Virus record (IMG/VR): IMGVR_UViG_3300022697_000186
Span: 1-45,090 of that record
Source: a virus
Taxonomy: Duplodnaviria; Heunggongvirae; Uroviricota; Caudoviricetes
DNA: 45,090 bases
Strand: one strand, 5' to 3'
Below the pieces are notes generated by a model. That model ran no database searches. It saw nothing but the letters and a program-made list of their open reading frames with translations, and was not told the DNA's origin. The number at the start of each line of letters is the position of its first letter. Position 1 is the first letter of the stretch. This document shows positions 30,728 through 36,249 of this stretch, in pieces. The translations under genes and the position numbers were made by a program.

Positions 30728-31073
30728 GGGGACGCAATGGTTTCGATTGGATTCCAAAGTTATTAATAGGCATGTCGTGGGGATAGTCGACCACGTAAAA
30801 ACGCTTAAAAGTCTTAATTGACGAAAATTCTTTCGCACTCGTAGCTTAAGCTACGACATCATACACCTAGTGTTTCCTAGTGTAAGTGTATTGGTGTAAT
30901 TTAATTAGGATAGTTTAGATTATTTCTGTTATAATCTATACGAAATTTAAACAGATAGTAAATGTAAAATTTGTTTGTGGAGATTGCATTTATAAACTAA
31001 ACACAGAATAAACATGTAGTCTATAGTAATCAAAGTTTTCAAGACTCGGGTTCGACTCCCGACGTCTCCACCA
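30728..31073 (+). ncRNA. ssrA: tmRNA, tag (A)DENSFALVA
   Basis: GGGGACG/CGTCTCC with G3:U70, T arm TTCGACT, ACCA; tag ORF 30820..30849. Confidence 0.93.
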
Positions 31074-33939: not shown

Positions 33940-34287
33940 ATGAAAATTCCATTGTACATATTAGATGAAAATAAAAATGTAGTGAAATGTTCTGTTGAAG
34001 ATTTTGAAAAATGGGTATCTATTCCCGGTAATAAAATAATTAAACAAGAATATTGTAGGAATTTTAAAATTTCAACTGTATTTTTAGGAATGGATCATAG
34101 TTATAATTCTAATATTAGTTTATGGTTTGAAACTATGATTTTTAATGAAAATGATCAAGATGTATATTGTGAAAGATATACAACATATGATCAAGCTGTT
34201 GAAGGACATGAATATTCAAAACGTGCATTTTTTGAGGATATAACTAGTATGATTAAAAATTGTAAATGTAAATTAAGGATAATATGA
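33940..34287 (+). CDS. Conserved phage hypothetical protein
   Basis: ISTVFLGMDH...FETMIF....Y.TY.QA..GH pattern. Confidence 0.65.
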   Translation: MKIPLYILDENKNVVKCSVEDFEKWVSIPGNKIIKQEYCRNFKISTVFLGMDHSYNSNISLWFETMIFNENDQDVYCERYTTYDQAVEGHEYSKRAFFEDITSMIKNCKCKLRII

Positions 34288-34568
34288 CATTAAAATTTAT
34301 TGGTGAATTAGTTTTAGCAATTAGAAGAAATGTAGAAAATGATAAAACTGTTATAAAAATAGTTGATGATCTTTGTCTTTTAGATGGTACCAAACAATTT
34401 AAAGATATAATAATAAAAATTAAAGAATCTTTAAATAAAACTTTAGAAAAATATAATAAAGAATCTGATGATAAAAAAATTGGAGAAGTTTTAATAGATA
34501 AAGGTTCTATCACGAAGAAAGAATTGAATGCTGCTTTAAAGCAACAGAAAGAAGATAAAAGTGATTAG
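34284..34568 (+). CDS. Small protein with MshEN-like c-di-GMP-binding motif
   Basis: KIGEVLIDKGSITKKELNAALKQQ fits RLGxxLLxxGLIxxxxLxxxLxxQ spacing. Confidence 0.65.
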   Translation: MTLKFIGELVLAIRRNVENDKTVIKIVDDLCLLDGTKQFKDIIIKIKESLNKTLEKYNKESDDKKIGEVLIDKGSITKKELNAALKQQKEDKSD

Positions 34569-35115
34569 TTTATATGATTTAAACAAACTATTAGAAGCTA
34601 CTAAATATGCGGCTGATAACCATGTAGGACAACAACGTAAAGACCCTAGAAATATTGCATATATAAATCATCCTATTTCTGTAATGGAGATACTTTCAAA
34701 TACAGGTGGAGTAGGAGACGTATCAGTTCTAATTAGTGCAGCTCTACATGATTTAATTGAAGATACTATTGTTACATATGAAGATATAGTAGATAGATTT
34801 GGTAAACATGTAGCTGATATAGTACAAGAAGTATCTGATGATAAATCTTTACCAAAAAGTGTAAGAAAAAAATTACAAATAGAGCATGCATCTAGTATAA
34901 GTATAGAAGCTAAATTAATTAAACTAGGTGATAAGATTAGTAATGTAAGAGATATTGGGGAAGCAGTACCAATAGGGTGGTCAGTAGAAAATACTAATAA
35001 TTATATTGAATGGGCAAAACAAGTAGTATATCATCTTAGAGGTATTAATAAACCATTAGAAGATTTATTTGATAAAGTTTATAATATAGCTATAGATAAA
35101 CATAAAATTAAATAA
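34561..35115 (+). CDS. HD-domain (p)ppGpp hydrolase, Mesh1/SpoT-HD-like
   Basis: H.GQ.RK, YINHP..V, AALHDLIEDT, LIKLGDKISN. Confidence 0.85.
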   Translation: MISLYDLNKLLEATKYAADNHVGQQRKDPRNIAYINHPISVMEILSNTGGVGDVSVLISAALHDLIEDTIVTYEDIVDRFGKHVADIVQEVSDDKSLPKSVRKKLQIEHASSISIEAKLIKLGDKISNVRDIGEAVPIGWSVENTNNYIEWAKQVVYHLRGINKPLEDLFDKVYNIAIDKHKIK

Positions 35116-35554: not shown

Positions 35555-35911
35555 GTGATTGCTGGTATAATGATGGGTATAATAAGAACAATTAATTATG
35601 GTAACCTAAATATGTATAAACCCGAAGGTAAATTAGCAAACACATATGAGTTATTAAAAAATGTTGGAACTCTTAAAAAAGGTACAATGTTTAAAGTAAC
35701 TGATACAGTATCTACTTCATATGGTCATGAATTTGTATCATATAATTTTGGTGTTAAGTTTTATGAAGAATTTATGATTGATAATAAATTGTTATTCGCT
35801 CCAAGAAAAGATTTAGATGATATGGATGAAATTATAGAAAATATTACTGATACTAATAATGATGATTTAGTAACACAAGATGATTTAGATTATTTATTTG
35901 GATTAAAATGA
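35555..35911 (+). CDS. Hypothetical protein with CheZ-like C-terminal peptide (start possibly 35612)
   Basis: Ends DLVTQDDLDYLFGLK; paralog of next gene. Confidence 0.6.
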   Translation: MIAGIMMGIIRTINYGNLNMYKPEGKLANTYELLKNVGTLKKGTMFKVTDTVSTSYGHEFVSYNFGVKFYEEFMIDNKLLFAPRKDLDDMDEIIENITDTNNDDLVTQDDLDYLFGLK

Positions 35912-36249
35912 AAAAAGATAAAAGAACTAAAGCATATGAATTAATAAAACCATTTGGTAATATTAAACCAGGAACTATATTTAAAAGGACTTATCAATTT
36001 GAAAGTAGTAAGTTAGGTTTTAGTTATAGAGCTATTGATATAAAATCATCTATAATGATAGATGAAGCATTTTTAATTATAAATAAGGAATGGTTTAGAC
36101 CGCGTCCTGATTTAGATGCCATGGAAGAAATTATAGAAAATATTACTGATAAAAAAGTATCAAAAAATCGTAATACAAGTTCAATATTGTCACAAGATGA
36201 AGTAGATGCCTTATTGAGTGGATGTAGTATAAATGAATATGAAGATTAA
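35908..36249 (+). CDS. Hypothetical protein with FliM-like CheY-binding peptide
   Basis: Contains SILSQDEVDALLSG near the C-terminus. Confidence 0.65.
   Translation: MKKDKRTKAYELIKPFGNIKPGTIFKRTYQFESSKLGFSYRAIDIKSSIMIDEAFLIINKEWFRPRPDLDAMEEIIENITDKKVSKNRNTSSILSQDEVDALLSGCSINEYED

Follow-up and report, generated by a model that had tools for sequence, protein, structure and literature searches.

Tandem paralogs of an uncultured jumbo phage with CheY-docking-like C-terminal peptides as possible decoys for the host flagellar switch

Introduction

Two neighbouring small genes of an uncultured phage, here termed paralogs A and B, encode proteins whose C-terminal tails resemble the short peptides through which FliM and CheZ dock on CheY, and the locus raises the question of whether these tails may serve as competitive docking decoys for CheY-P of the host flagellar switch. 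Flagella are known phage receptors. Structures of E. coli CheY with a FliM peptide include PDB 1F4V. Complexes of E. coli CheY with a FliM-type peptide have also been solved as PDB 2B1J and 1U8T, and binding of CheY to the EIDAL motif of FliM sets the direction of rotation (PMC9126983, PMC6946799). The E. coli FliM N-terminal peptide (FliM_N) is MGDSILSQAEIDALL, where D12 of FliM forms a salt bridge with K119 of CheY (10.1101/781468). The E. coli CheZ tail peptide QDQVDDLLDSLGF, bound to CheY in PDB 2FMF, occupies the same CheY face as FliM (PMC5760072), and the FliM/FliY N-terminal peptide is also recognised by FlhG (PMC12826062). No phage protein targeting CheY-P or the FliM docking site is described in the literature searched, which agrees with the first-pass annotation of this DNA, where no described phage CheY sponge was known; unannotated copies of the peptide do exist in cultured Campylobacter phages.

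The phage record and the two paralog genes

The window, i.e. the whole stretch of DNA analysed (45,090 nucleotides), covers the initial 45 kb of an IMG/VR virus record 236,091 bp long, which has a GC content of 27% and an estimated completeness of 69% and is that of an uncultured jumbo (giant) phage. The region of A and B consists of small genes, all on one strand, mixed with 18 tRNA genes and a tmRNA. The two genes and their best-conserved segments are as follows.

35612..35911, + strand: paralog A gene, 99 aa from ATG 35612 (ORF list and alignment with B)
35570 (ATG) and 35555 (GTG), + strand: alternative starts of paralog A, giving 113 aa and 118 aa, respectively
35908..36249, + strand: paralog B gene, 113 aa (P0001)
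35801..35851, + strand: acidic segment of A, PRKDLDDMDEIIENITD, best-conserved stretch of the pair (alignment)
36100..36150, + strand: acidic segment of B, PRPDLDAMEEIIENITD (alignment)

ATG 35612 is the start of A that lies best in register with the N-terminus of B in the alignment, while the public protein set calls A as 113 aa (P0002). The stop of A and the start of B overlap as ATGA, which suggests that the two genes are translationally coupled. Over ~100 residues the proteins share 38% identity (BLASTP, E 3e-20), and within the 236-kb record each is the sole relative of the other. Four parts are common to both: a core of ~60 residues with predicted beta strands, the acidic segment, a linker whose length differs by six residues between A and B, and a C-terminal amphipathic acidic peptide. 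The core strings first noticed as shared by the two proteins are indeed present in their alignment.

The acidic segment follows the nearly invariant pattern P-R-x-D-L-D-x-M-x-E-I-I-E-N-I-T-D, whose invariant columns are P, R, D, L, D, M, E, I, I, E, N, I, T and D. The same 24 bases code for EIIENITD in A and in B (35828-35851 and 36127-36150), although the proteins as a whole are 38% identical; strong codon bias could explain this, as could gene conversion or an additional constraint.

The FliM N-terminal-type peptide of paralog B

36178..36222, + strand: FliM N-terminal-type peptide of B, SSILSQDEVDALLSG (FliM_N HMM), followed by CSINEYED (8 residues) and the stop

The whole C-terminal peptide of B reads SSILSQDEVDALLSGCSINEYED (stop), and the string ILSQDEVDALL lies exactly at 36184-36216, as reported in the first-pass annotation. 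FliM was found in 59 of 61 sampled Campylobacterota genomes, and the 30 loci fetched from these have an almost invariant FliM N-terminus, MADILSQEEIDALLEVVDD. From such N-termini a FliM_N profile was built. Among 693 six-frame ORFs of the phage, B ranks first with this profile (14.8 bits, E 6.8e-4), above the maximum of 10.5 bits reached in 200 residue-shuffled proteomes, and the label "FliM-like" given earlier to B is thus borne out. B also matches the strict motif L[ST]Q[DE]E[IVM]DA[LF][LF], which is expected 1.4e-6 times in the six-frame ORF set of the phage. A looser CheY-docking motif, [ST]Q[DEQA][DEQ][IVL]D.L[LF], is expected 0.0014 times and was seen twice, in A and B only, with no occurrence in 200 shuffled proteomes. 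A chance origin of the tail motif of B is excluded.

The tail of B agrees with E. coli FliM_N at 10 of 12 positions (I-L-S-Q-D-E-V-D-A-L-L in B, S-I-L-S-Q-A-E-I-D-A-L-L in E. coli). Against Campylobacterota FliM_N (MADILSQEEIDALL, with D-I-L-S-Q-E-E-I-D-A-L-L), 9 of 11 positions are identical and the other two conservative. The aspartate equivalent to D12 of FliM, i.e. the residue pairing with K119, is kept in the tails of both paralogs, within DALL of B and DYLF of A. As in FliM, the peptide of B may be a short helix on a flexible-looking tether, to judge from a poor model (pLDDT 50); unlike FliM, where the peptide is N-terminal on a C-ring protein, B is a 113-aa orphan carrying it near the C-terminus, with no FliM, CheC or SPOA domain.

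As a control of specificity, the strict motif was back-translated to a degenerate DNA pattern and scanned over 101 Campylobacterota genomes, where 95 contain exactly one match and 6 contain none, while the reversed pattern gives 0 matches. All eight genomic sites compared lie ~50-110 nt upstream of a FliM Pfam match on the same strand. The single site per genome, which lies at fliM wherever the comparison was made, means that the motif marks the start of fliM in Campylobacterota cells. In its sequence, the tail of B copies the CheY-P docking peptide of the FliM N-terminus, a likeness that is both specific and statistically significant.

The CheZ-like tail of paralog A

35861..35908, + strand: tail of A, DDLVTQDDLDYLFGLK, a FliM_N/CheZ_C-like amphipathic acidic peptide fitting the looser motif only

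The peptide DLVTQDDLDYLF, which had drawn attention to A, is found exactly at 35864-35899. By eye, the tail of A looks like the E. coli CheZ peptide seen with CheY in PDB 2FMF and like C-termini of Campylobacterota CheZ, e.g. DTTTENLVSNDDIEALI..GKK and GDTTTENLVSNDDIEALIESLGKK (stop). Like that of CheZ, the peptide of A is C-terminal and has the pattern Q-D-x-[VL]-D-x-L-[LF] in common with E. coli CheZ (QDQVDDLL), and its acidic lead-in is similar to Campylobacterota CheZ tails ending in ...NLVSNDDIEALIESLGKK. Unlike CheZ, A has no phosphatase domain, and Tyr and Phe stand in place of Ala/Asp and Leu/Ile. With a CheZ-tail HMM the tail of A scores 4.2 bits (E 1.5, rank 2, without composition correction). 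The earlier label "CheZ-like" is therefore kept for A as a description by eye, a likeness that the profile does not bear out.

A keeps the motif pattern of B at the aligned position across the 6-residue linker indel. Since the CheZ profile gives E 1.5, the case for the tail of A rests on its homology to B and on this pattern kept across the indel, and A is a diverged sibling of B with a CheZ-like look that is not significant by profile alone. A sliding-clamp or SSB-tail motif was also considered, prompted by the ending LDYLF; the bacterial sliding-clamp motif is QL[SD]LF and the SSB-tail type is DDDIPF, and the tails fit neither.

Homologue, family and fold searches

Only the pair itself was recovered when homologues of A and B were sought by a word-indexed search of 5.8e9 clusters and in IMG/VR. 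Exhaustive HMMER over ~1.8e9 representative proteins returned the pair plus one motif-only match, a 1000-residue cellular protein (P0003) with ~25 tandem EIDALL-type repeats, and searches of GenBank phages, including tblastn, gave nothing relevant. Neither A nor B is assigned to a Pfam or PHROG family, the sole matches being a sub-threshold one to DUF7399 and a 12-residue match of the B tail to phrog_31201 (E 0.06). A and B have no Pfam match to FliM (PF02154) and contain no CheC-like middle or SPOA domain, and A, with 99-118 aa, has no Pfam match to the phosphatase four-helix bundle of CheZ (PF04344). A and B are thus members of neither the FliM nor the CheZ family, and a scan of the phage record for FliM, CheZ and a receiver domain found none of them.

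The AF2 monomer model of B has a pLDDT of 50 and is too poor for a fold search. In it, a low-confidence linker (residues 82-91) leads to a short helix that coincides with the motif (residues 96-104), which would be compatible with a tethered-peptide design like that of FliM and CheZ. Structural look-alikes are the small beta DUFs DUF7399, DUF4314 and DUF4926 (TM 0.4-0.58), at low confidence. A phmmer search of both tails against PDB chains returned nothing useful, and a complex prediction for a Campylobacterales CheY with paralog A, a single run without controls, scored 0.00, a value that has no weight for or against binding.

Copies of the peptide in other phages and proteins

The degenerate DNA motif was scanned over 2.9 million IMG/VR contigs, yielding 47 loci. 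Sixteen of these have the motif among the first 13 residues of a small ORF (92-180 aa); they include one pair with a Phage_integrase domain and seven loci of Campylobacter phages. The latter copies belong to the family phrog_8774, which covers 29 Campylobacter phage records from both Eucampyvirinae genera (CP220, CP21, CPt10, NCTC12673, CP81, PC14 and others). Every cultured Campylobacter myophage conserves this protein of 121-128 aa, which is annotated as hypothetical and listed with unknown function in PHROG.

L057:1404-1766: phrog_8774 member of CP220
L065:2538-2900: phrog_8774 member of CP21
L067:3153-3536: phrog_8774 member of PC14
L081:577-960: phrog_8774 member of NCTC12673
L090:1240-1617: phrog_8774 member of CP81

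The member in CP220 is gp071 (YP_009169205.1; 121 aa), which begins MAQILSQEEIDALLDD and is encoded just upstream of the genes for a gp5-like baseplate lysozyme and PAAR; that in CP21 is CP21_042, and a related Eucampyvirinae form begins MAMILSQEEIDALLECG. The N-terminus MAQILSQEEIDALL is identical to that of Campylobacterota FliM except at one position, and the first 14 residues of the family, either MAQILSQEEIDALL or MAMILSQEEIDALL, nearly equal the FliM_N of Campylobacterota given above. These small phage proteins resemble A and B in carrying, at one terminus, an almost exact copy of the docking peptide of the host's FliM, and phrog_31201, the sole PHROG match of B (E 0.06), is an N-terminal fragment family of phrog_8774 proteins. 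However, the motif is N-terminal in phrog_8774 and C-terminal in A and B, the bodies are unrelated (helical and coiled-coil-like in the former, a beta-rich core in the latter), and phrog_8774 occurs as a single copy without a CheZ-like variant, whereas A and B form a tandem pair. No phrog_8774 match was obtained over the body of A or B.

In uncultured phages, small ORFs of 92-154 aa that are unrelated and belong to no Pfam family begin with MRDILSQDEIDALLNG, MSDGSLSQDEIDALLAG and similar sequences, and no relatives of two of these ORFs were found among cultured phages.

L058:4454-4915: FliM_N-like ORF of an uncultured phage
L079:7990-8451: FliM_N-like ORF of an uncultured phage
L069:6725-7120: FliM_N-like ORF of an uncultured phage
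L053:3173-3535: FliM_N-like ORF of an uncultured phage
L060:327-710: FliM_N-like ORF of an uncultured phage
L075:4650-4997: FliM_N-like ORF of an uncultured phage
L093:418-693: FliM_N-like ORF of an uncultured phage

Unrelated phages thus carry copies of the FliM docking peptide, which suggests convergence. The motif is also internal in unrelated phage families, namely one of 149 aa with TFTQEEIDALLKRD, one with HFSQEEVDALLKQELL and one of 460 aa with GFSQEEIDALLGEG, and docking on CheY is therefore not proved by an EIDALL-like string alone.

Two further occurrences of such strings are recorded here. Phage DUF5131 (Gp37/Gp68-type) proteins (L063:609-1559 and L083:4812-5837) end in ...FLTQDEVDALLGPL (stop), an EIDALL-type C-terminal tail in a family that is ordinary in other respects. 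The cellular protein P0003 (L168:6001-9003; GCA_022703965.1, JAKJHH010000022.1) contains ~25 tandem ATLGQDEIDALLGGG-type repeats in 1000 residues, adjoins an MptE-like (motility-accessory-factor-type) gene and has a hybrid kinase (receiver and Hpt domains) in its vicinity; this protein could be a natural multivalent CheY-P binder.

Proposed function and alternative readings

With a probability of roughly 0.5, the tails of A and B may act as competitive docking decoys for CheY-P of the host flagellar switch, a function made plausible by the presence of the FliM docking peptide in unrelated phages of flagellated hosts. A and B would then be host-takeover proteins of the jumbo phage. In this view each has a small core, probably rich in beta strands, from which an acidic helix conserved in both paralogs and a flexible linker lead to a short linear motif at the C-terminus, and this motif would mimic the CheY-P docking peptides of the FliM/FliY N-terminus and the CheZ C-terminus. 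If the host is flagellated and has CheY, the tethered tails, once produced during infection, would compete with FliM and CheZ for the alpha4-beta5-alpha5 face of CheY-P, so that CheY-P would be kept off the motor, the flagella would be locked in their default rotation and chemotactic switching would be lost. Further avidity, or contact with a second partner, may come from the conserved core and acidic segment; alternatively, the core domain might bring CheY-P to another partner. Isolated FliM_N peptides bind CheY-P at micromolar affinity only, and sequestration by A and B would therefore need a high copy number or avidity. Beyond the presence of the motif, we infer every step of this mechanism (binding, target and physiological effect) from sequence. 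The idea of the first-pass annotation that both tails are decoys is partly supported, by the significant FliM_N copy in B; the CheZ likeness of A reaches E 1.5.

A known docking motif is thus found in a new setting, at the C-terminus of two tandem phage paralogs, which is not described in the literature searched. Should the tails bind CheY-P, phages would reprogram host swimming from inside by mimicry of a 10-residue motif; this would bear on superinfection exclusion among flagellotropic phages and on the dispersal of infected cells, and such peptides would be minimal tools for locking flagellar rotation. The cultured Campylobacter phages with the same copy make the decoy idea directly testable in a laboratory host. 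A phage precedent for interference with motility is PIT4 of Pseudomonas phage LSL4, which, like the function proposed for A and B, acts against two-component signalling, as an early phage protein inhibiting motility, and has been proposed as an infection-exclusion device (PMC10714779). PIT4 differs in binding histidine-kinase domains (FleS, PilS) instead of carrying a receiver docking peptide, and has no sequence relation to the pair (PMC10714779).

A wider proposal is put forward tentatively, namely that several phage lineages have convergently copied the CheY-P docking peptide, and that A and B form a tandem FliM-type plus CheZ-type CheY-P sponge. The lineages would be the jumbo phage studied here, all Campylobacter myophages and several uncultured phages, with A and B as the most elaborate version of the copied peptide, and such a sponge would block motor switching and CheZ access at once. 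Its tails might also hit other CheY-like receiver domains, e.g. those of two-component-type defence systems. The purposes are speculative, and may include the exclusion of further flagellotropic phages which need a given sense of rotation, the dispersal of infected cells by straight swimming, and interference with other receiver domains.

Among the other readings, it is unlikely that the tails are acidic amphipathic helices for some other phage or host partner, with a convergent likeness to FliM that is irrelevant to chemotaxis. EIDALL-like strings do occur inside unrelated phage proteins without a link to motility, the segment DLDxMxEIIENITD and not the tail is best conserved in the pair, and the tail of A fails the CheZ profile, all of which would suit such a partner. 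However, B agrees with FliM at 11-12 positions in a row, the flanking I-L-S-Q among them, which is far beyond a generic acidic helix; the motif occurs once per Campylobacterota genome, at fliM where checked; and the terminal, apparently tethered placement is like that of natural docking peptides.

Rather improbable, too, is that the tails are decoys for FlhG and not for CheY. FlhG is a MinD-like ATPase which sets flagellar number and influences the choice of division site in Campylobacter, and a decoy for it would interfere with the completion of the C-ring, with the number of flagella or with polar division. FlhG also reads the FliM/FliY N-terminal peptide (PMC12826062). The evidence from the motif serves this reading as well as the CheY one, and Campylobacter phages with the copy infect a host having the FlhF/FlhG system. 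Against FlhG, the tail of A is closer to a CheZ-type peptide, and CheZ partners CheY and not FlhG; the assembly of new flagella is probably also slow relative to the lytic cycle. The FlhG and CheY-P readings are not mutually exclusive. Least probable is that A and B are evolutionary debris or unexpressed ORFans whose tail has no present function, as suggested by the absence of homologues in any database searched and the poor fold prediction (pLDDT 50), but both diverged copies (38% identity) keep an open frame, the ATGA junction, the acidic segment and the tail motif, which implies selection since the duplication.

Genomic context and indications of the host

Directly upstream of the pair lie a tRNA-Arg gene and the following two genes, which overlap by 8 nt.

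34284-34568: 94-aa ORF, whose C-terminal half with KIGEVLIDKGSITKKELNAALKQQ is MshEN/T2SSE_N c-di-GMP-binding-like by eye
34561-35115: HD_4 gene, RelA/SpoT-hydrolase-like (small-alarmone-hydrolase type; Pfam E 1.2e-14; phrog_990)

The 94-aa ORF has no Pfam match, and no viral loci related to the HD_4 gene were found. This neighbourhood of signalling-related genes, with an HD_4 gene of (p)ppGpp-hydrolase-like type, is compatible with a block of genes for the takeover of host signalling and counts in favour of the decoy reading. A promoter scan in this DNA of 27% GC gave 25 sites where 32 were expected, and is uninformative.

As for the host, relatives of the phage NadV with 46-51% identity come mostly from Campylobacterales/Campylobacteraceae MAGs, with one from a Streptobacillus MAG, and point weakly to Campylobacterales. 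A further hint, by eye, is the likeness of the A tail to CheZ tails of Campylobacterota. A 20-kb segment of the phage gave no spacer-like or prophage-like match in 401 Campylobacterota genomes. No FliM match was found in the three Campylobacteraceae MAGs with the nearest NadV relatives (G003, G004 and G005), which may be non-motile or incomplete. In comparison with bacterial tmRNAs of two phyla, the universal 3' end of the phage tmRNA alone matches. This tmRNA is located at 30728-31073 and encodes the tag peptide DENSFALVA, and the 18 tRNA genes of the window lie within 7679-35198.
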